From: Pseudomonadota bacterium
GTDB taxonomy: Bacteria > Desulfobacterota > Binatia > Binatales > Binataceae
Direction: 5' to 3'
NCBI GenBank assembly: GCA_021323675.1
Contig: JAJPKP010000061.1
Span: forward strand, 11,955 to 75,954
Length of the DNA stretch: 64,000 nucleotides
The notes beneath the pieces are model-generated. The model was given only the letters and a program-made list of their open reading frames with translations, did not search any database and had not been told where the DNA came from. The translations under genes and the position numbers were made by a program. Below, piece by piece: positions 1 to 64,000 of the stretch (positions within the stretch are counted from its first letter, which is position 1; each line of letters opens with the position of its first letter).

Positions 1-759
1 CTACACTTCCTCGACGAACATGTCGCGCACGGCATCTTCAAGCTGGCGAGTAAGGGGTGCGCGATCCTTGCTGTTGAGGTTCGAGGTTGGAATCGGCCGG
101 CCGATCGTCATCCGCATCCTTCCGCCTGGAACGACAACCTTTGCCAGGCGGGGAAAGAACGCCCCGGAGCCGCTTATTGCCATCGGCACGGCCGGGAGCT
201 TGGTCAGAGCCGCCAGCCATGCGGCGCCGTCTTCGAACTCATGAACGCGGTTGTCGCTGAAGCGATGCCCCTCGGCGAAGACACACAGGTTGTAGCCCAT
301 TCGCGCGATCTCGACCGCTTTGCGAATCTCCCTTCCGCCGCCCTGGCGGTCGATGATCACGTGGCCGCCATGCTTCATCGCGTAGCCGACCAGGGGAATT
401 TTGAGCAGCTCCTTCTTGGCGACAAATCGAATTGGTCCGGGCATATAGGCGGCGACCGCGAAGATGTCGAAGAAGCTCTGATGGTTGCAGACGAGGATAT
501 AAGAGCCGATGCCGCGAAGATTCTCGAGTCCCACGATATCGACCTTGACGCCGCAGATATTGATGAGCGCGCGGGCCCAAATCGTGCTGAGGAAAGTCAC
601 CGCGCCCAGCTGCCCCATCCGCGCGCAGATCGCCGTCGGAACGGCGAGAACCGCCGTCACCAGTACGCAGATGAGAGTCGCGATCGCGCCCCACACGGTT
701 TTGAGAAGACGCGCGGGCGAGGCTGACGCGAGCGAAGCGGTTTCGACCTGGTTCGACAT
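1..759 (-). CDS. plsC: 1-acyl-sn-glycerol-3-phosphate acyltransferase (lysophospholipid acyltransferase, PlsC family)
   Basis: 252 aa. HX4D acyltransferase motif 'NHQSFFD'. N-terminal TM helix. 'FAEGHRF' block typical of LPLAT family. Stop codon at window position 1-3. Confidence 0.8.
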   Translation of the reverse strand: MSNQVETASLASASPARLLKTVWGAIATLICVLVTAVLAVPTAICARMGQLGAVTFLSTIWARALINICGVKVDIVGLENLRGIGSYILVCNHQSFFDIFAVAAYMPGPIRFVAKKELLKIPLVGYAMKHGGHVIIDRQGGGREIRKAVEIARMGYNLCVFAEGHRFSDNRVHEFEDGAAWLAALTKLPAVPMAISGSGAFFPRLAKVVVPGGRMRMTIGRPIPTSNLNSKDRAPLTRQLEDAVRDMFVEEV

Positions 760-50919: not shown

Positions 50920-53900
50920 TTACGGAGTAATACAGCCCGTTGGTTCGGCGACCGGCTTGTAGTGCGGGAACTGACCGCCTGCTCCGCCATCCTCGGTCCG
51001 GTTTACGACCGTGCCGCCGCTCGACGCAACCAGGTTGCCATCCAGCGTGGGCGTGGCCGGCGTGCCGTAGGTTACGTAGGGATCGGGGCATTTGGAGGCC
51101 AAGGGTGACCAGGTTGAATCGTTCAGGACGATGCCGTAATCCTGACAGCCTTCCGCCGGGCAAACATAGTAGCTCTCGCCCCCGTTTTTGGATGGGCAGA
51201 AATACGGATCCGTGGAGCTGTCGCCCGTGCAGGCGCCCAAAGGCGACGGGCCGGTGGCATTTGGCCTGACCTGGGCCACGTACAGGAAGAGCCATCCGGT
51301 GCTTGGGTCATAGAAATACTTGTCCAGAACCGGCTTGCCGTTGGAAGTCAGCTCCGAGATCGAATTGGCGGGTGTGAGCGTCGCCTTGTCATATATGCAG
51401 AGCGACCGATTGCTGTCTTTGTGGGAACCGGTCGGGCACGTGCCACTCGTAGGAACAGGGATCACGCCGACCGATGGGCAGTTTTTGTCCTTTTTGTAAT
51501 TCTGACGGTCCAGGTTGAAGCATGCTTCTTTGGAGGTCAGCCCGTTCGCCTGCCCGTCAAGCTGGTTATAGGCTTTCCTCAGCTCCTGATCGGTCGGATC
51601 GACGCCGCCGCCGCCCCATGATCGGTATCCTTGGGTGATGGTGAACAGGCTTGCGGAGTTCGGATGGTTGTTCTGAGTGCTCGATCCGGTTCCGGTGTAG
51701 CAGATACCCACGCGGACGTAGAAAGGACTGTCAGCGGAGATATTTGGTTTTACGGTATCGACGACCGCGACGTGGACAACACTCGCTATTCCCTGGTCTG
51801 CGGTGATTGTATAGCCGTAACCGCTTTGGATTTTAGGCTCCCACACGCCCTGTCCATCGCGGCCCGACAATACCATCTCCGGATGCTCCCGAAGGTTTCC
51901 GCTGAACTCGGTGGAATCCTTCGTGAATGTAACGTGCTGATCGTGACGGTTTTGGTCATTATCCGCATTCGGGTCGGGCGGATTTGGAAACAGTGTCTGG
52001 AATTCCAGGGCTGCCGCCTCTCCGGGGGAGAAATTTGCGTTGGCGCGGCCTTCCATCTTCTTGTCCTGCTTGCCGGTCGCCTGGCACTCGTCAACCGAGC
52101 CGCCCGGTGTGCTGCCGGCCGCGTTCAGTTCGAGGTTGTTGAGAGAAATCGGATGCAGCTTGCCATCGAGGCTGTCGTCGCTGGTGGGTTTGACGGTGTA
52201 CCCGCTCAGGGTTCCGTCCAGGTCGATGATGGCGGTGTTTTTGTCGCCGTCATTGAAGGCGGAAATGTTGACCTGTTGCGTGTAAACCTGGTGGCGAAAA
52301 TCGACATTATCCCACGAGAGCTTTTCGCTGGCTGTTGCTACCGGATAGGAACTGAGGTTTCCCTGGAACCATCCGAGCGCTGCGTCGCCTTCGTACACTC
52401 CGTTGGGAGGCGGAGGAATCGGCGATGGAGGACTGTTCAGGTAAGCCGTGTCGTAGGTGGTCAGCAGGCTCGTTGGGTCGGCTTTAAAGTTGACGAACCG
52501 ATCGTGGAAAATGAGCGCGGGCCCGTCGTAAATCATGTAACCGGCCATGTTCCAGCGATTGTCGGGGTAGCCGTTGTTGATTCGATCGGCGCCGGTGCCC
52601 TGCTGGCCTTTTGCAGCCGCGGTTTTATCAATACAGCCGAAGTTCCATCCGCCAATTTGTCCGAGGCCCTGCGAACTCTGCCGGATCGAGGGGCAGGGGC
52701 CGAAGCGGTCGACGTTGTTCTGGCTGATCCCGACTATCACCGAATCGCTAAGCAGCGAGTAGATTCCGGGGTAGTTGCCGTCGGGTCCGCCGGAGGTTAC
52801 CAGCGAGATTCCGTCGCGATTGGTGGCAATCCGGGCGCCGCTGACGGTATAGAAGCTTGGCCGCAGCCAGATTCCTCGGAAGCGGTTGCGCGTGACCGTA
52901 ACGCCCGTAAATTCGGCCATCGTCGCGTGATTGGTCGGAGACTTCACTCCGTTCTGATAGGGCTGCAGTGCTTCGGCGTTGATATCCTGATTGTCGCCGC
53001 TATAGAGCCCGGAGTCGCAGCCATGCGCCCGGTTGTTGACGAAGGTTCCGTGAGGATTGCCGATTCCGGTGTAGGTGCCTACCGGAATGAACTTTTTGCT
53101 TTGCAGGGTCTGGCTGCCGCGGAACGGCGGGACGTACCAGTATCCCTTGCCCTCGCCCTGGCATCCGCCAATCGAGTTGTTGGTCAGGTTCGTGCTGGGA
53201 TTGACAATCCAGAAACCGCTCGCGGGTTCATAGTAATACTCTCCAGAGTTGCACGGTGGTTGGGTTCCGGTCGGAATGAATGACCCGTTGTCATTGGTGT
53301 TCTTGTCGCCGAACTTCATGCAGCTTCCGACCGTGCCGGCGGTCTGGTCTCCGGTGTCCGGAATCTTGAATTGATCGAACGGCATCTTCTTTGAATCCTG
53401 GTTGAGCGGATCGACCATGTTGTCGCCCACCCACCAGGAATTGCTGATGAGGGTGTTACGCGCGGTCTCCGGCGTGCCACCGTCGTTCACGTCGAACCAG
53501 TTGCTCATCGCGCCCAGGCCGAGATTGTGATTGAACGTGACGTTGTCCTCGTCGCCAATCTCCTCGTAGAAGATGTGCCCGGTGATTCTCGCGCAGACGT
53601 TGTTCGAGATGGTCAGGTTCTGCGTCGAATGGATCGCTATGCACTTGTTATAGCTGTGATGGATGCTGTTGGAATCGAGGAGCGGCTTCTGCGCCACGTC
53701 TTGATCCATATGGAAATGGATCGGATAGCTGCCGAGCTTGTCCTTGCCGAACTTCGAGATCTCGACGCCCTGGATGGAAACTTCGTTGAAGCCCTGGAGA
53801 AACTTGATCTCGCCGCCCCAATGGTTGCTCGTTCCGGTGGCGGGAGTGACGGAGGTCAGCGTGATATTGCGGGTGATGAGGCCGACCTCGGCGCGCTCGT

Positions 53901-54927
53901 CAACGCCGTAGTTGCGATCGGAGCCGTCCGTCATGCCTCCGGTCGGCGGAAGCGATCCGAAGTGATAGAACTTGAGCGGCGTCGAGGGGGAGAGGTTGAT
54001 GATCCGGTTTCCGTTTTTGTCGAGAGCGCCAAAACCCGCGATCTGAACGAATTCCGATTCAAACGGACTGAAACCGGTGCCGCCCACCACGATCCAATCG
54101 TTGGCCTGCCACGCGCCGGGCTTCTTGGTGACATCGTCCTTCACCACGATTTGCGTGGCTGACTTGGCGGGAACCGCCACCTTGTGTGTTGCGTCGTATT
54201 TCGAAGGGCCGGCCGCGTCACCGAGGTAGGTCCAGCTCACGCCCGTGGGTGGAACGCCCTTGAGCCCGTACATCCTCAGCGATCCGCCCTTTTCGACCTG
54301 GATTCCCTTGGTGTAGCCGGGGCAATCGTTGTTGACGCAGTTGGGACTTTTATCGCCGGTGAACTTGATAGTGACGTTGGTCGCGGGGTTGATGGTGCCA
54401 ATCGGACACTTGGCGTTGCCGACTTCGAGGCTTCCGAATACGTCGATGCCGGTAGTCGTCAGCGTGACTGGAAGCTGCGCTGTGCGATCGAGAAATTTTA
54501 CCGTGGCTCCGGCGTTGATCGTGATCTTGCCGTAGCTGGCGTTGGCGGTGTCAACGTAAACCGTGACGTTCCCTTTGCACTCCGGTTGGGTTTTTGAATC
54601 GCTGCCGCCGACGACGACATCCTTGGTCTTCGTATCGACCATGCATTTGGACAATATGCCGTAGTTTCTCTGAACTTCGCATTCAGGAGTCGCGGTAGCC
54701 TGGGGCGCCGGTGGCGTCGCCTGAGGCGGGTTTGTCGCGTGATTTTTCTTGTGATGTCGGCGCGCGGCGGCCGGCGAGGCCAGCATCGCGACAACCAGTA
54801 CAACCGCGATCGGAACCGCCGATTTTGCAATCGCCAGCGGCTTGATGACCTTGCTGCGCGCTGTGAAAACAGCGGCAATCCGGGCCCAATTCCGGGAAAT
54901 CATCGTCGAGAATGAATTCATACTCAT
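50920..54927 (-). CDS. giant secreted G8-domain / parallel beta-helix protein, CEMIP/TMEM2-like
   Basis: Signal anchor, then Pro-rich linker. About 800 aa with block-wise similarity to animal CEMIP ('RAEVGLITRNITL', 'GGEIKFLQGF', 'YPIHFHM', 'SIHHSYNKC', 'NHNLGLG', 'VNNRAHG'). Cys-rich ~450-aa C-terminal region. Start ambiguous (54966, 54927 or 54903). Confidence 0.7.
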   Translation of the reverse strand: MSMNSFSTMISRNWARIAAVFTARSKVIKPLAIAKSAVPIAVVLVVAMLASPAAARRHHKKNHATNPPQATPPAPQATATPECEVQRNYGILSKCMVDTKTKDVVVGGSDSKTQPECKGNVTVYVDTANASYGKITINAGATVKFLDRTAQLPVTLTTTGIDVFGSLEVGNAKCPIGTINPATNVTIKFTGDKSPNCVNNDCPGYTKGIQVEKGGSLRMYGLKGVPPTGVSWTYLGDAAGPSKYDATHKVAVPAKSATQIVVKDDVTKKPGAWQANDWIVVGGTGFSPFESEFVQIAGFGALDKNGNRIINLSPSTPLKFYHFGSLPPTGGMTDGSDRNYGVDERAEVGLITRNITLTSVTPATGTSNHWGGEIKFLQGFNEVSIQGVEISKFGKDKLGSYPIHFHMDQDVAQKPLLDSNSIHHSYNKCIAIHSTQNLTISNNVCARITGHIFYEEIGDEDNVTFNHNLGLGAMSNWFDVNDGGTPETARNTLISNSWWVGDNMVDPLNQDSKKMPFDQFKIPDTGDQTAGTVGSCMKFGDKNTNDNGSFIPTGTQPPCNSGEYYYEPASGFWIVNPSTNLTNNSIGGCQGEGKGYWYVPPFRGSQTLQSKKFIPVGTYTGIGNPHGTFVNNRAHGCDSGLYSGDNQDINAEALQPYQNGVKSPTNHATMAEFTGVTVTRNRFRGIWLRPSFYTVSGARIATNRDGISLVTSGGPDGNYPGIYSLLSDSVIVGISQNNVDRFGPCPSIRQSSQGLGQIGGWNFGCIDKTAAAKGQQGTGADRINNGYPDNRWNMAGYMIYDGPALIFHDRFVNFKADPTSLLTTYDTAYLNSPPSPIPPPPNGVYEGDAALGWFQGNLSSYPVATASEKLSWDNVDFRHQVYTQQVNISAFNDGDKNTAIIDLDGTLSGYTVKPTSDDSLDGKLHPISLNNLELNAAGSTPGGSVDECQATGKQDKKMEGRANANFSPGEAAALEFQTLFPNPPDPNADNDQNRHDQHVTFTKDSTEFSGNLREHPEMVLSGRDGQGVWEPKIQSGYGYTITADQGIASVVHVAVVDTVKPNISADSPFYVRVGICYTGTGSSTQNNHPNSASLFTITQGYRSWGGGGVDPTDQELRKAYNQLDGQANGLTSKEACFNLDRQNYKKDKNCPSVGVIPVPTSGTCPTGSHKDSNRSLCIYDKATLTPANSISELTSNGKPVLDKYFYDPSTGWLFLYVAQVRPNATGPSPLGACTGDSSTDPYFCPSKNGGESYYVCPAEGCQDYGIVLNDSTWSPLASKCPDPYVTYGTPATPTLDGNLVASSGGTVVNRTEDGGAGGQFPHYKPVAEPTGCITP

Positions 54928-55008
54928 CGAACTCCTGCGCGGCTGTCCGCGCCCGATATCACACACGCCGGAACTGAGCGGATGGATTTTAGACGCGGTT
55001 TGGCCACC

Positions 55009-56499: not shown

Positions 56500-56799
56500 G
56501 TAGAAGAAACCTTCCTGCGATGGAAATAGGTTTTCGATGAATTTATGTTCGAATTCGCGCGCAAATCAGGAAAATCAAAGTTGCGTAACGCAGCGTTAAA
56601 GCGTGATTTCGCCATTAACGCCCAGAATTGATGCCTCTTGCCGAACGGCGTTCTACGCTAGTCAATTCAAGCCCAAACTACAAGGAGGTCGCCTACGAGC
56701 AATGCGGCGATTGTAGTGGAGGCTTAGAGGCGCGTGGAAGCCAACGTCCATTTGAAAAATCTAAAAGATTAGTAAAATTTGTGTCAGGCCGGAGACCAG

Positions 56800-59703
56800 A
56801 TGGATAACCAGCTTCATTTCCCGCCGTTTCGCTTGGATCGGCGTGGAGGCAAACTCTGGCGGGGTGACCGCTCGATTGCTCTCAGACCAAAGACGTTCGC
56901 TCTCCTTGATTATCTCCTTGCACACGCTGGCAAGCTCCTAAGCAAGAACGAACTTCTGACGGCATTGTGGCCGGACGTGAATGTCCACGACGCGGCCCTG
57001 ACGGTGTGTATCCACGAGCTTCGCGACGCGCTGGGCGACGATGCGCAAGCCTGTCGCTTTATAGAAACCACCCACGGACGCGGCTATCGATTCATCGCGC
57101 AGGTAACTGCGACGGATCCCGCTTCCGTTCAGGGCGAGGACGATGTCTTCGTGGGGCGGCAGGAAGAGCTTGCCGCGCTTTCCCAAACCTGGAGGCGCGT
57201 CCTGAAGGGAGCCACGCGGGTGGTGTTTGTGTGCGGCGAGGCGGGAATCGGCAAAACCACCCTGGTCCAGAGGTTTCTTGCTGCCGCCGAACGGCCAACA
57301 GCGTCCTGGACAGGCCGCGGACAATGCGTCGAGTTGTATGGAGAAAGCGAGTCCTACCTGCCGATCCTCGAGGCGCTTGGGCAGATGTGCCGCGGGAGAA
57401 GCGGCGCCGAGGTCAGGCGTGTTCTCCTCAAATATGCGCCGAGCTGGGCGCTTGAGATTCCCGGACTGGTGGCGGCCGCCGACCTGCCGGCGGTTCGGCT
57501 CGATTCAGCTTCCGCGCCGCTGTCGCGCAGGCTTCGGGAGTTCGCCGAAGCGATTGAACTGCTGGCGGCAGTGCGTCCGGTGATACTGGTCTTCGAGGAC
57601 CTTCACCTGAGCGATCGCGCCACGCTGGAACTCATATCCTACCAGGCAAGACAAGGCGGCGAAGCGCGCGTGCTCATCATCGGCACCGCTCGTCTGCAGG
57701 AGGAGCGCACGCGGCCGGTGAACGACATGATTCGCGATCTCAACAGCCGCCATCAATGCGAGCTTCTCGAGCTCGACGCTCTTGGTCAGGGCGCGGTGGC
57801 CGATTACCTTCGCCGCCGAATCGGAAACGAGTCGGTATCGCTGGATCTTGCCACCCAGGTCTTCAGCCGCACCGAAGGCAATCCGTTGTTCATGGTGACA
57901 ATCTCCGACCGGCTGCTGGAGTTCGATGACGGCAGCCGCCAGGTCGGTGCTGACGACCTCGAGCGCATCGGGGTGCCTGACAGCCTGCGCGACATGATCG
58001 AAAAACAGTTCGACATGCTGGCGGACAACGACCGCCGGCTGATCGAAGCCGCGAGCGTTGCCGGGGTCGAGTTTCCGGCGGCAAATCTCCGGGCGGCACT
58101 TGGCCAGAGAAGGGACGGTGCGATCGAGCCATGGGAGGATCGCTGTGATGACCTGGTCCGGCGCGGCCGGTTTCTCCGGCGCAGGGGAATCACGCAGTGG
58201 CCGGACGGAACCTTGTCGGCGCGATATTCGTTCGTTCACGGGCTGTACCAGGAAGTTGTCTATAACCGCGTCAATCCCGCCCGCCGCGCCCGCTACCACC
58301 TGCGGATCGGCGAACGGATGGAGGCGGCATACGGCACCCGGGCGGGCGATGTGGCGGCCGAGTTGGCTGCTCACTTCGAGAAGGCGGGCGATAACCAACG
58401 CGCGGTCAAATACTTTGGCGCATCGGTTGAAACCGAGCTTGGGCGTTCCGCATACGATGCCGCGATCGCGCAGGCCAGAAAGGCGCTGTCACTTGCCGGT
58501 GCGCTGCCGGCGGGGCCGCAGCGCAGCGGCGAGGAATTGCGGCTGCGGATGCTTCTGGGATCCGCCCTGATGGCGCGACTCGGCATCGCGGCGCCATCCG
58601 TCAAGCAGGCATACGCCCGCGCCGAAGAGCTGGTTGAGAGGATGGATGATACTCCGGCCCTCGTTCCGGTTCTGTTAGGCTCGGCCAAGTTCCACATCGT
58701 CCGAGGCGAACTCGATGCCGCGCAGAAGTTCGCGGAGCGAGCGCTGAGAATGGCTCATCACGCGCAAGATCCTGACCTTCTTCTGGAAGCACGGCTGGTT
58801 ATCGGCGCGATACTCTATAGCCGCGGAGAATTTCGCGATTCGCTGAGGCACTTCGAGCAGGCTGAATCTCTCTACGATCCCGCCAGACATCGTCTCCACG
58901 CTCTAACCTACGGAATTGAGCCCGGCGTGCTCGGCAAGAACTATGTCGCGATGAACCTGTGGCGGCTGGGATTTGCCGACCGAGCGCGCAAACATGCCAC
59001 CGAGGCGGTCGCGCTTGCCGAGGAATCGGGACATGCCCACAGCATCTCGTTGGCGCTCACCGGTTTGGCCTCGATTTACGAACGCTGCCGCGATTGGTTG
59101 TCGGCGGCGGCCTGGGCCGAGAAGCTGGTCAACTACGCGGCGGAAAAAGAGCTGGAGTTGTGGCGCGCGTGGGGAGAGGTGCTCTTGGGTACCGCGCAAG
59201 CCGAACTCGGCGATTCTCGCCAGGGATCGATGAGGATTCGATCGGGCCTCGACTCGCTCGAAGCAACCGGAGGCAGCGCACGACAGGCCGAAGTCGCCGC
59301 GCTCGAGACGCTGGTTCGCGCGCATGCGCTGGCGGAGCAGGAGGCGCTCCACATTGCAACCAAGGCGCTTGCGACCGCCCGCAAAACGGGCGAACTGACC
59401 GACGAGGCGGAGATGCAGCGAATTATCGGCAGCTTCCGGCTCGCCGGAGGCGGCGCTGGAAACGAGGCGGGGCACGCAGAGGGAGAACAGAGCCTGCTTG
59501 AAGCGATCGAAACGGCGGATCGGCAGAACGCGCTGGCCTACAAGCTTCGGGCGGAGATCGTTCTGGCGCGCCGGCGTATGCAGCGTGGAGACCGCGAGAG
59601 TGTGCGCACGCGTCTGATCGAGTCCTACCGGAGGTTTACCGAAGGCTTCGATACCGCCGACCTGAAAGAGGCAAAAACGCTAATCGAAGAATTGCAAGCC
59701 TGA
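56800..59703 (+). CDS. winged-helix (OmpR/PhoB-type) + P-loop NTPase + TPR/helical (STAND-like) transcriptional regulator
   Basis: N-terminal trans_reg_C 'LRPKTFALLDYLLAHAGKLLSKNELLTALW...GRGYRF'. Walker A 'GEAGIGKTT'. About 600 aa of helical repeat. Confidence 0.7.
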   Translation: MDNQLHFPPFRLDRRGGKLWRGDRSIALRPKTFALLDYLLAHAGKLLSKNELLTALWPDVNVHDAALTVCIHELRDALGDDAQACRFIETTHGRGYRFIAQVTATDPASVQGEDDVFVGRQEELAALSQTWRRVLKGATRVVFVCGEAGIGKTTLVQRFLAAAERPTASWTGRGQCVELYGESESYLPILEALGQMCRGRSGAEVRRVLLKYAPSWALEIPGLVAAADLPAVRLDSASAPLSRRLREFAEAIELLAAVRPVILVFEDLHLSDRATLELISYQARQGGEARVLIIGTARLQEERTRPVNDMIRDLNSRHQCELLELDALGQGAVADYLRRRIGNESVSLDLATQVFSRTEGNPLFMVTISDRLLEFDDGSRQVGADDLERIGVPDSLRDMIEKQFDMLADNDRRLIEAASVAGVEFPAANLRAALGQRRDGAIEPWEDRCDDLVRRGRFLRRRGITQWPDGTLSARYSFVHGLYQEVVYNRVNPARRARYHLRIGERMEAAYGTRAGDVAAELAAHFEKAGDNQRAVKYFGASVETELGRSAYDAAIAQARKALSLAGALPAGPQRSGEELRLRMLLGSALMARLGIAAPSVKQAYARAEELVERMDDTPALVPVLLGSAKFHIVRGELDAAQKFAERALRMAHHAQDPDLLLEARLVIGAILYSRGEFRDSLRHFEQAESLYDPARHRLHALTYGIEPGVLGKNYVAMNLWRLGFADRARKHATEAVALAEESGHAHSISLALTGLASIYERCRDWLSAAAWAEKLVNYAAEKELELWRAWGEVLLGTAQAELGDSRQGSMRIRSGLDSLEATGGSARQAEVAALETLVRAHALAEQEALHIATKALATARKTGELTDEAEMQRIIGSFRLAGGGAGNEAGHAEGEQSLLEAIETADRQNALAYKLRAEIVLARRRMQRGDRESVRTRLIESYRRFTEGFDTADLKEAKTLIEELQA

Positions 59704-61664: not shown

Positions 61665-61774
61665 AATACTCTGTGTGATGCCTTCGGTGTTCAAAAGCCG
61701 GACTATGTCCGCCGTGTGGCGGAGAGCGCATGAGTGCGCAAGTGACGTAGTTCGATAGCGTCGCGCTTACTATC

Positions 61775-64000
61775 GTGTCAAGCATTCTTCGGTTCGGATC
61801 GTTCGGAGCAGCGTTGTTGGCGCTGCTCGCGATGCTGGCGACGACGGTGCGGATTGCGTCGGCCCAAAGCTACGCCACGCCGTCCGTCAATCCTGAGGAC
61901 TTCGTGGTCGGACCTGGAGAGGATCAGCCGGGATCGCCGGATGAGGCGTCCGGCTCTGATCAAAATTCATCGGGAGACCAGGCGGGATTAGGACAAGCCG
62001 GCGGGTCGATGATGCAGGATTTGAACATCTCGCCCGATCAGCTCGAGCGGCTGAAAGGCGAGTATCAGGGCGGCAATCTGTCTGAAGACCAGTTTCAGGA
62101 GTTATGCGCGAGGGTGGCCGCCAAGCACCTGAGCGATCAGGACGTGCAGGCGCTGGCGACGTCGATGGGGTTTGCGGCGGATCAGGCGGATAAGCTGCGA
62201 CAATGCGCTGAGGAAGCGCGAGGGGGAGCGCGAGGCGGACGGCAGGGGCCAAGCGCACAGAACCGCGATCAAATCGCGCGGCAGTTCGAACTCGAACGAC
62301 GCCGCCAGAAGCTGAAAACGTCACCGATAGAAGAGGAGTTTCGGAGTCTGGCGAGTCCGTATCGCCAGCCCGAAGCTCCGACTTCGGAGCATCTGGAGCA
62401 GTTTGGTTATTCGGTCTTTTCGGAGCCGGTCTCGACTTTTGCACCGGCTACCAACGTGCCTGTCAGCGAGGATTACATTCTCGGCCCCGGCGACAACTTG
62501 ACGGTGCTGCTTTGGGGACGCGTGAACCGGACTCTCAAATTGCCGGTGCAGCGTGACGGCTCGGTCCTGATGCCCAATCTCGGACCGATTCCAGTCGCGG
62601 GATTGACCTTCGAGCAGGCCAAGAAGCTCATCGAGTCGCGCACCGGACAGATCGAGGGCGTGCAGGTGAACGTCACGATGGGCGCAATTCGGACGATCCA
62701 GGTGTTCGTGATGGGCAAGGTGAATCAGCCCGGCCTCTACACGATCAGCGCGCTCTCGCACATAACCAACGCGCTGGTGGCGGCGGGCGGAATCGCCAAA
62801 GTCGGCACGCTTCGCAACGTGGAACTGCGCCGGGGCAACCGCACGGTTGCGGTGATCGATCTCTATAACATCCTGCTGCACGGCGATTCGTCCGGCGATG
62901 TCCGGCTCGAACCGCGCGACGTGATCTTCGTGCCGGTAATCGGGCCGGTCGTGGGTATCACGGGCGACGTGAACAGCCCCGGCATCTACGAACTCAAGGG
63001 CGAAGCCAATCTTCGCAGTGTGCTCGCCCTGGCCGGAGGCGTCAGCGCTTTCGGTTACGCCCAGCGGGTCCAGGTCGAGCGAATCGACAACCATCAACGG
63101 CGCATCGCGCTCGATGTGGAGCTTGGTGACCTTGGGCGTCCGCGGTTTCCAATCCACGACGGAGATCTCGTGAAAGTGTTTCCCGTTTTGCCTTTGCAGC
63201 AGAACGTGGTGGTACTCAAAGGGAACGTCAATCGGCCGGGAACCTACCAATGGCGCCAGGGAATGCGAGTGTCCGACCTGATCCGGGAAGGCGAGGGCAT
63301 TTCGGACCATACATATTTGGATTACGCGACCATTCGGCGGCGGGTTGCGCCTACCCAGCGAATCGAGTATCTGCCCGTGGACCTGGGCGCCGCACTGCAA
63401 AGCACTTCTCCCACCTTCGATGTGGCGCTTGCCCCACGTGATGAACTCACGGTGTACAGCGACAACGACTTGAACGATGTTCCGACGGTTACGGTGCGGG
63501 GGGCGGTGCGCAAGCCCGGGACCTATCCTCTATCGCAAGGAATGAAGCTGAGCGACCTTATCTACGAGGCGGGCGGGCTCAAAGACGATGCTTATCAGAG
63601 ACGCGGCACTTTGGCCCGCACCGAGATCGTCAACGGCGCGACCACGCGGCACTCTTATATCGACGTGGATATTGCCGCCGCGCTTGTCCCCGGCAGCACA
63701 AACGATCCCGAATTAAACCGCTATGACGAGCTCTTCGTTCAGGAGGCGTCCAACTGGCACAAGCCCTGGGAAGTGAGAGTTCACGGCCAGGTGCAGCGCC
63801 CCGGCCCCTACGTCATCCGGGAAGGGGAACGCCTGTCCGAGGTTCTTAGCGACTGCGGGGGCCTTCGCGCTGACGCCTATCTGCCCGCGATCGTGTTCGA
63901 ACGCGAATCGGTCCGAGCGATGCAGCGCGAGAGGCTGGCGGAGAGCCGTAAACGGTTGAAGGAGGATCTCCTGATGGTGTCGTTGATGCCTCAGCCGTTG
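61775..64000 (+). CDS. polysaccharide export protein (Wza/KpsD-like, Poly_export + multiple SLBB domains), 3'-partial
   Basis: Not in ORF track because it has no stop in the window. GTG 61775 gives signal peptide 'SSILRFGSFGAALLALLAMLATTVRIASAQS'. 'YILGPGDNLTVLLWGR' Poly_export motif. At least three SLBB-like repeats ('VFVMGKVNQPG', 'VTGDVNSPG', 'VLKGNVNRPG', 'VRGAVRKPG', 'VHGQVQRPG'). Open to window end, frame checked by hand. Confidence 0.8.
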   Translation, partial: MSSILRFGSFGAALLALLAMLATTVRIASAQSYATPSVNPEDFVVGPGEDQPGSPDEASGSDQNSSGDQAGLGQAGGSMMQDLNISPDQLERLKGEYQGGNLSEDQFQELCARVAAKHLSDQDVQALATSMGFAADQADKLRQCAEEARGGARGGRQGPSAQNRDQIARQFELERRRQKLKTSPIEEEFRSLASPYRQPEAPTSEHLEQFGYSVFSEPVSTFAPATNVPVSEDYILGPGDNLTVLLWGRVNRTLKLPVQRDGSVLMPNLGPIPVAGLTFEQAKKLIESRTGQIEGVQVNVTMGAIRTIQVFVMGKVNQPGLYTISALSHITNALVAAGGIAKVGTLRNVELRRGNRTVAVIDLYNILLHGDSSGDVRLEPRDVIFVPVIGPVVGITGDVNSPGIYELKGEANLRSVLALAGGVSAFGYAQRVQVERIDNHQRRIALDVELGDLGRPRFPIHDGDLVKVFPVLPLQQNVVVLKGNVNRPGTYQWRQGMRVSDLIREGEGISDHTYLDYATIRRRVAPTQRIEYLPVDLGAALQSTSPTFDVALAPRDELTVYSDNDLNDVPTVTVRGAVRKPGTYPLSQGMKLSDLIYEAGGLKDDAYQRRGTLARTEIVNGATTRHSYIDVDIAAALVPGSTNDPELNRYDELFVQEASNWHKPWEVRVHGQVQRPGPYVIREGERLSEVLSDCGGLRADAYLPAIVFERESVRAMQRERLAESRKRLKEDLLMVSLMPQPL

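Follow-up and report, generated by a model that had tools for sequence, protein, structure and literature searches.

The right-hand end of the 64,000-nucleotide (nt) stretch of DNA analyzed here (the window; contig JAJPKP010000061.1 of the Binataceae assembly GCA_021323675.1) carries most of a gene for an outer-membrane polysaccharide export (OPX) protein. An initial annotation, made from the sequence alone, had described at this place an uninterrupted open reading frame (ORF) of at least 742 codons that starts at GTG 61775 and runs off the window, with a signal peptide, a Poly_export motif, and at least three SLBB repeats. Translation confirmed that frame +2 holds 742 codons without a stop from this GTG to the window end. 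An in-frame TAG lies at 61748, the frame is open from 61751, and the GTG is its earliest start codon. At 62% GC the expected frequency of stop codons is about 2.9%, and the chance of 742 open codons is about 1e−10; the GC contents of the three codon positions across the gene body (0.68, 0.42, and 0.74) are strongly periodic. Beyond the chance figure, it is homology that decides that the frame is a real gene. The homology search retrieved a 100% identical protein (P0001) encoded on a 641-kb contig of a metagenome-assembled genome (MAG), deposited twice (GCA_037025385.1, JBAIHN010000008.1; JGI 3300005607, Ga0070740_10000008). The locus on this source contig (L008) differs from the window by 1 mismatch in 11,992 nt of overlap, and the frame continues on it past the window to a stop codon at window-equivalent position 64570, giving 931 amino acids (aa) from the GTG (full gene, L008:9767-12562). 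The nearest relatives, with 63 to 78% identity, are labeled as Candidatus Binataceae MAGs, from which the source is most likely an uncultured member of this family.

The OPX gene was missing from the ORF track solely because the program that made the list omits ORFs running off the window, as had been supposed. The further supposition that other edge genes were lost in the same way did not hold. At the left edge, the listed ORF 1..759 (−) encodes a PlsC-type acyltransferase (PF01553, 6.6e−26); the + frame open at 1-726 has no Pfam match and is a shadow of this ORF, so no gene was missed there. The antisense ORF 62321..63400 (−; 359 aa), wholly inside the OPX coding region, is a high-GC shadow and not a gene.

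Proteins of the OPX superfamily carry a Poly_export domain (PF02563) followed by at least one SLBB domain (PF10531), and this order was found here (Table 1). Both profiles, proposed in the initial annotation as a check, scored above their cut-offs. Poly_export matched residues 229-302 (E = 9e−18; 64.7 bits, with the cut-off at 28), in a region holding the motif YILGPGDNLTVLLWGR. SLBB matched five stretches of the 742-aa part (E = 3e−48; 161.9 bits against a cut-off of 27), where SLBB_2 also matched five, and six stretches of the full 931-aa protein (185.4 bits), so that the earlier count of at least three repeats was an undercount. An AlphaFold2 model of P0001, computed from a 71-sequence alignment (mean predicted local distance difference test [pLDDT], 78), orders the protein as a four-helix domain, a linker, Poly_export, four SLBB domains, a fifth beta-grasp domain split by a long helical hairpin (residues 711-766), a sixth beta-grasp domain, and a C-terminal helix. 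Hairpin helix 2, SLBB 6, and the C-terminal helix are encoded beyond the window.

Table 1. The OPX gene, the domains of its product, and neighboring genes (window positions; L008, the same locus on the 641-kb contig)
Feature	Position	Strand	Evidence or remark
Secreted Cys-rich protein, 147 aa	61221..61664	−	Called in L009; tblastn in relatives L001, L002, L005
OPX gene, first 742 of 931 codons	61775..64000	+	Open frame, source contig, Pfam, hhalign
Predicted Sec/signal peptidase I signal peptide, aa 1-30	61775..61864	+	Cleavage between ASA and QS; heuristic n/h/c regions, homologues
Acidic Gly/Ser/Pro-rich low-complexity linker, aa 31-78	61865..62008	+	Translation, homologues
Family-specific four-helix domain, aa 87-150	62033..62224	+	AlphaFold2 helices, pLDDT 77-90
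Poly_export (PES) domain, aa 229-302	62459..62680	+	Pfam PF02563; aligns to Wza 2J58, GfcE, KpsD
SLBB domain 1, aa 309-386	62699..62932	+	Best Pfam SLBB_2 stretch; AlphaFold2 beta-grasp
SLBB domain 2, about aa 392-473	62948..63193	+	Pfam SLBB; boundaries from AlphaFold2 secondary structure
SLBB domain 3, about aa 478-563	63206..63463	+	Pfam, AlphaFold2; without KpsD counterpart
SLBB domain 4, about aa 571-658	63485..63748	+	Holds best Pfam SLBB stretch, 572-615; AlphaFold2
Start of GfcC-like module: SLBB 5 and first hairpin helix, aa 665-742, cut by window end	63767..64000	+	AlphaFold2, Foldseek, hhalign
SLT lytic transglycosylase, 217 aa, signal peptide	L008:12567-13220 (window-equivalent 64575-65228)		4 nt after OPX stop
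Wzi, 570 aa	3' of SLT		Pfam 4e−53; 2YNK 5e−12
Wzz/GNVR co-polymerase, 330 aa, two transmembrane segments, no kinase domain	3' of Wzi		
PseB/FnlA-like dehydratase	Downstream cluster		
UDP-sulfoquinovose-synthase-like enzyme	L008:17207-18367		445 bits; cut-off 575
Further SDR-family epimerase/dehydratase	Downstream cluster		
AsnB-type amidotransferase	Downstream cluster		Nearest PEP-CTERM-associated family
MurJ-family MOP flippase	Downstream cluster		Pfam 3e−44
GT4, Acetyltransf_6 protein, methyltransferase, carbamoyltransferase	Downstream cluster		

The class of the exporter was assigned by comparing the profile of the 71-member family, using hhalign, with GfcC, GfcE, and KpsD sequences drawn from annotated E. 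coli genomes. KpsD, from the E. coli group 2 capsule (Class 2B of Saidi et al. 2022; OPX group F of Cuthbertson et al.), aligned end to end (99.87%; E = 1.5e−31), with about 30% identity over 492 columns that pair P0001 residues 121-846 with KpsD 58-555. Common to the two proteins are the FG-x-x-F motif, Poly_export, the first SLBB domains, and, toward the C-terminus, a helical hairpin, a GfcC-like beta-grasp, and a final helix. KpsD has a signal of the signal peptidase I (SPI) type, as is predicted for the present protein, and the two are non-lipoproteins. They differ in length (931 versus 558 aa) and in about three extra SLBB domains of the present protein (P0001 ~345-595, without KpsD counterpart), which alone also has an acidic linker and an N-terminal four-helix domain with a cysteine pair. 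The C-terminal part resembles GfcC of the E. coli group 4 capsule (3P42) in fold and in profile, as a module of beta-grasp, hairpin, beta-grasp, and C-terminal helix; GfcC is a stand-alone protein of 248 aa, whereas the module is fused to the OPX protein here. Foldseek matched 3P42 at E = 1.6e−9 (TMt, 0.61 to 0.64 over ~254 columns), and hhalign aligned GfcC with hairpin helix 2 and the last beta-grasp (83%, E = 8.9e−6; C-terminal sub-profile, 90%, E = 1.5e−6), placing the GfcC-like region at P0001 residues 679-780. The three marks of Class 2B were thus all found: a region homologous to 2J58, a non-overlapping region homologous to GfcC (3P42/PF06251), and an extended C-terminal alpha-helix after the GfcC-like module. 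The second of these was scored by fold and profile recognition, as in PMC9603273, Pfam alone remaining below threshold. For Class 2B proteins, the median length is 824 aa, SPI signal peptides occur in 83%, and Wzi-like barrels are the commonest neighboring barrel, with 48 + 14 cases (PMC9603273). The present protein stays within this published range in its architecture, its type of signal, and the association with Wzi described below.

The initial annotation had called the protein Wza-like, which is right at the level of the superfamily: the best sequence matches among solved structures are Wza chains (2J58; E = 3e−15), and Foldseek also retrieved Wza (2.7e−17). A Class 1 protein, that is, a Wza-type lipoprotein with the amphipathic Wza_C helix and merely some extra SLBB repeats, would fit these matches, the 1 to 14 SLBB domains reported for Class 1 (PMC9603273), and a Wzx/Wzy-like locus that holds Wzi and a co-polymerase as group 1 capsule loci do. 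We nevertheless regard it as very unlikely. The alignment to the Wza family ends early: GfcE, the Wza paralogue, covers just Poly_export, SLBB1, and SLBB2 of the family profile (98%), in contrast to the end-to-end alignment of KpsD. The N-terminus has no lipobox cysteine, and a search of the C-terminal fragment at E ≤ 10 gave no match to Wza_C (PF18412). Homology of the C-terminal helix to 2J58 326-359 was not supported, and a non-overlapping GfcC-homologous region, absent from Class 1, is present, which places the protein in Class 2 by the published rule. E. coli Wza and GfcE themselves differ from the present case also in having two beta-grasp domains instead of six and in a co-polymerase with a kinase domain, which the PCP here lacks. 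More specific labels did not apply either, since the NCBIfam equivalogs all scored below their cut-offs (EpsE TIGR03028, 148 versus 262.65 bits; PEP-CTERM export TIGR03027, 119 versus 180; EpsY NF041843, 60.7 versus 320). In databases, close relatives go under the names “SLBB domain-containing protein” or “polysaccharide export.” Group E OPX proteins, such as Vibrio OtnA, are likewise very long with a predicted C-terminal helix (PMC11845990), a likeness by description only.

Three candidate starts at window positions 61775, 61832, and 62009 give OPX proteins of 931, 912, and 853 aa. The existing public calls use the two later ones, with 853 aa from M79 (P0001; NCBI, JGI, and ENA) and 912 aa from M20 (P0215; NCBI and Logan), and neither keeps an intact signal peptide. 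Relative to the acidic linker, the calls from M20 and M79 are described as beginning within it or past it. With GTG 61775 as the start, the protein gains the predicted signal peptide, as the initial annotation had reported. Read heuristically, it consists of an R-containing n-region (MSSILR), a 19-residue hydrophobic core (Kyte-Doolittle hydropathy [KD], 1.93), and RIASA, with predicted cleavage before QS; these regions and this cleavage site appear only with the GTG start. Full-length homologues carry equivalent signal peptides ending in A-x-A-Q and share the mature N-terminus AQSxxTPSxNPxDFVVGPG, and the tblastn alignment to a relative with 75% identity (L002) begins at OPX residue 1. Since a clear Shine-Dalgarno sequence is absent ahead of all three candidates, what speaks for GTG 61775 is its conservation and the fact that the protein needs to be exported. 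It fits better than either public start, and the public start is probably mis-annotated. The N-terminus has no cysteine lipobox, and the protein is accordingly predicted to be an SPI-cleaved non-lipoprotein.

The mature protein begins with the linker, which opens with the conserved mature N-terminus, QSYATPSVNPEDFVVGPG, and continues with the four-helix domain, a family-specific add-on. The two cysteines of this domain, C111 and C144, occur together in 69 of the 71 aligned sequences and are jointly missing from the remaining 2; none keeps a single one. From this both-or-neither pattern, the covarying pair probably forms a periplasmic disulfide. No sequence or fold relative of the domain was found in the PDB, where the profile search matched only designed or low-complexity helical proteins and the best Foldseek E-value was 1.6. 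An exhaustive search of 1.84 billion representatives with the domain profile gave only 79 matches at E ≤ 1e−3. Six of them were scanned with Pfam, and the four that gave Pfam domains all carried the four-helix domain N-terminal to Poly_export. A Pfam “Homeodomain” match on this domain (E = 0.00058 to 0.059, under the cut-off) was set aside as helical noise, in view of the PDB profile search and Foldseek. Giant proteins of 1,300 to 2,800 aa that match the profile in several stretches resemble tape-measure-type helical repeats and were not counted as homologues. The other two of the six scanned matches, P0149 and P0164 (1,800 to 2,300 aa; from outside the window), are giants of this kind that show 7 to 9 weak stretches and no Pfam domains and are probably not true homologues. 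Between the four-helix domain and Poly_export lies a poorly modeled helical linker with invariant S183, E186, and F189 and the motif LEQFGYSVF.

The OPX gene heads a cluster of co-directional genes, which was followed over ~13 kb downstream, including ~4 kb walked via a Logan contig that carries the flippase gene. The first is a lytic transglycosylase (SLT), which keeps the ES, GLMQ, and AYxAG motifs as read from the sequence. The next genes encode a Wzi homologue, with ~120 residues preceding the barrel match, and a polysaccharide co-polymerase (PCP) that is weakly like Etk and KpsE (KpsE match, E = 0.004). The cluster continues with sugar-nucleotide enzymes, an amidotransferase, the flippase, a glycosyltransferase, and modifying enzymes (Table 1). 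Across 11 loci, this one included, OPX and Wzi are adjacent in 9; the SLT gene lies between them in 7 loci, and one further locus has it 2 kb upstream. The literature searched mentions no link of a lytic transglycosylase with OPX, Wza, or KpsD and no such enzyme dedicated to polysaccharide export, and a search for polysaccharides of Binatota returned nothing relevant. In one relative (L015), an ATP-sulfurylase/APS-kinase gene lies 5' of the OPX gene; together with the sulfoquinovose-synthase-like gene downstream of OPX here, this is a hint that the polymer may contain a sulfonated or sulfated sugar. Judged by this gene content, the surface-polysaccharide locus proposed in the initial annotation is real, on account of the downstream genes outside the window and not of the upstream genes on which the proposal had leaned.

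The type of the locus differs from that of KpsD. KpsD works with KpsMT and KpsE, in whose place the present locus has a MOP-family flippase and a Wzz/GNVR PCP, along with Wzi and SLT; Kdo-linker genes were not seen. No KpsM/KpsT ABC-2 transporter was found within 10 to 13 kb downstream, here or in three relatives (L013 to L015). The stretch covered shows neither KpsMT nor a clear KpsE-type PCP-3, the marks of a group 2 (ABC-dependent) capsule. Candidate parts of a Wzx/Wzy system are present: the MurJ-family MOP protein and, with scores just below the cut-offs, the PCP. A Bac_transf phosphoglycosyl transferase occurs in the relative L013. Loci of relatives contain Bac_transf, GT2, GT4, and GT9 genes and are without a KpsMT-type transporter.

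Upstream of OPX, the G8/CEMIP protein, a regulator with AAA_16 and tetratricopeptide repeat (TPR) domains, and two probable lipoproteins were considered as members of the locus and rejected, being without synteny to OPX in 10 related loci. The first (50920-54966, −) is a protein of 1348 aa with G8 and CEMIP beta-helix domains that may cleave or bind glycan. It is followed by a probable lipoprotein of 496 aa without Pfam match. The regulator (56779-59703, +; 974 aa) combines an OmpR-type winged-helix domain (Trans_reg_C) with an AAA_16 ATPase domain and with TPR repeats. It lies 2 kb 5' of OPX and may control the locus, although synteny in relatives is lacking. A look-up of its exact protein sequence gave no match, probably owing to a different start call. 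The sole recurring upstream gene encodes the Cys-rich protein of 147 aa, which is divergent from OPX and keeps its position in three relatives. It has a signal-peptide-like N-terminus without lipobox and no Pfam match.

How the protein reaches the outside depends on its C-terminal end. The 22-residue hydrophobic helix at residues 907-928 (P0001 829-850) is conserved family-wide, ends exactly at the protein's C-terminus, and aligns with KpsD 540-555 by hhalign. The C-terminal 257 aa had no meaningful matches among PDB sequences. By analogy with KpsD, we infer that this helix would insert in the outer membrane; three of the points that follow, namely, the low pLDDT, the missing D4 alignment, and the composition of the helix, keep this tentative. 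Several observations weigh against reading the protein as a KpsD-type exporter that serves a flippase-type locus. The helix was modeled at just ~pLDDT 50. In the comparison of the C-terminal profile with GfcE, only SLBB was aligned, with no alignment to the Wza/GfcE D4 helix. The helix is more hydrophobic and less amphipathic than that of GfcE (KD, 1.74 versus 0.95; hydrophobic moment, 0.18 versus 0.37), and outer-membrane insertion is unproven even for KpsD (PMC9603273). Pfam detected neither Wza_C nor GfcC in the full protein at E ≤ 1e−3, and the GfcC_C model reached only a sub-threshold E of 0.036 on the C-terminal fragment. On the side of the locus, the PCP scores just under the Pfam cut-offs (GNVR, 25.8 versus 27.7; Wzz, 23.4 versus 25.5), and the flippase is under the MurJ equivalog cut-off (179 versus 235 bits), so that the substrate of MurJ is not to be assumed for it. 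The initial annotation had suggested looking downstream for Wzc, Wzx, Wzy, or glycosyltransferase genes. A kinase-less Wzz/GNVR PCP, a MOP flippase, and a GT4 gene were indeed there, but the 13 kb of sequence available downstream showed no Wzy, no initiating phosphoglycosyl transferase, and no BY-kinase.

The hydrophobicity of the helix could also point to the other membrane. As an inner-membrane anchor, it would make the OPX protein a tethered periplasmic glycan-binding scaffold and not an outer-membrane exporter, in line with a KD value near the classical transmembrane threshold and with the low amphipathicity. The summed biological-scale ΔG of +2.6 kcal/mol (family median, +2.7; GfcE, +8.7) disfavors insertion by the translocon, no residues and hence no positive charges follow the helix, and the helix is homologous to the KpsD C-terminus. 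This makes the anchor the least probable of the readings considered.

The main rival gives the exit to Wzi. There, the OPX protein would be a periplasmic conduit only, like Class 3 OPX proteins, the polymer would leave through the adjacent 18-strand beta-barrel of the Wzi family, and the helix would pack on the last beta-grasp, as in GfcC, or dock on the barrel. The adjacency of OPX and Wzi in most loci, the lack of a Wza_C match and of an alignment to the Wza D4 helix, and the GfcC-like nature of the last module all agree with this, since GfcC reportedly binds a barrel, GfcD; the same possibility was raised by Saidi et al. for Class 2 OPX proteins and Wzi-like barrels (PMC9603273). The helix, however, aligns with that of KpsD, where an 11-residue C-terminal truncation abolishes function and where epitopes are surface-exposed (PMC9603273), and it is conserved across the family up to the exact C-terminus. 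E. coli Wzi, moreover, is described as a plugged lectin and not a channel, in PMC3791409 and in PMC9603273, and the ~120 residues ahead of the barrel match here could form such a plug. We consider an exit through Wzi unlikely, though it deserves more weight than the other alternatives. The explanation that we prefer, with a probability of roughly 0.85 that includes the mechanism set out below, is that the protein is a KpsD-type (Class 2B) outer-membrane polysaccharide exporter heading a polysaccharide export locus.

For a protein of this identity, architecture, and neighborhood, analogy with Wza and KpsD suggests the following mechanism. The KpsD-type exporter would be exported by Sec and would oligomerize, eight-fold in the case of Wza, into stacked rings forming a periplasmic conduit, which the additional SLBB rings would make longer than the conduit of Wza or KpsD. 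Its C-terminal helices would insert in the outer membrane and form or anchor the exit pore. At the other end, the base of the stack, made of Poly_export and the N-terminal domain, would dock on the kinase-less co-polymerase of the inner membrane; a docking role for the four-helix domain, suggested by its position at the stack base, is speculative. The co-polymerase would receive a polymer built from flipped lipid-linked repeat units, following a Wzx/Wzy-like route and not the ABC route of KpsD. The adjacent lytic transglycosylase probably would open the peptidoglycan locally for the wide assembly, and Wzi probably would retain the polymer at the surface. A bolder version sees here a distinct Binataceae machine, in which a KpsD-type exporter was recruited to a Wzx/Wzy-like pathway, with a six-ring stack spanning most of the periplasm, a new disulfide-bonded N-terminal domain docked on a short kinase-less co-polymerase, a dedicated lytic transglycosylase for the passage through the peptidoglycan, and an obligate Wzi-family barrel as partner in the outer membrane. 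We consider this full combination unlikely.

In practice, these results matter for annotation: a real gene stands at the head of an export locus, and the public calls of 853 and 912 aa begin too late. Since these starts remove the signal peptide, automated prediction of localization would misplace the protein. What is new is modest, namely, the corrected start, the family-specific N-terminal domain, and the occurrence of a KpsD-type exporter, next to a conserved lytic transglycosylase gene, in a flippase-type locus, an association of which the literature searched gave no example; current models are not challenged by it. Exporters of the KpsD type thus seem to occur outside ABC-transporter capsule systems as well: the one from this uncultured soil lineage belongs to a flippase-type locus and is closely coupled to Wzi and, in most of the loci compared, to a lytic transglycosylase. 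The trio of OPX, SLT, and Wzi, together with the N-terminal domain, may offer modest leads on how wide channels pass the cell wall and dock to their inner-membrane partners.

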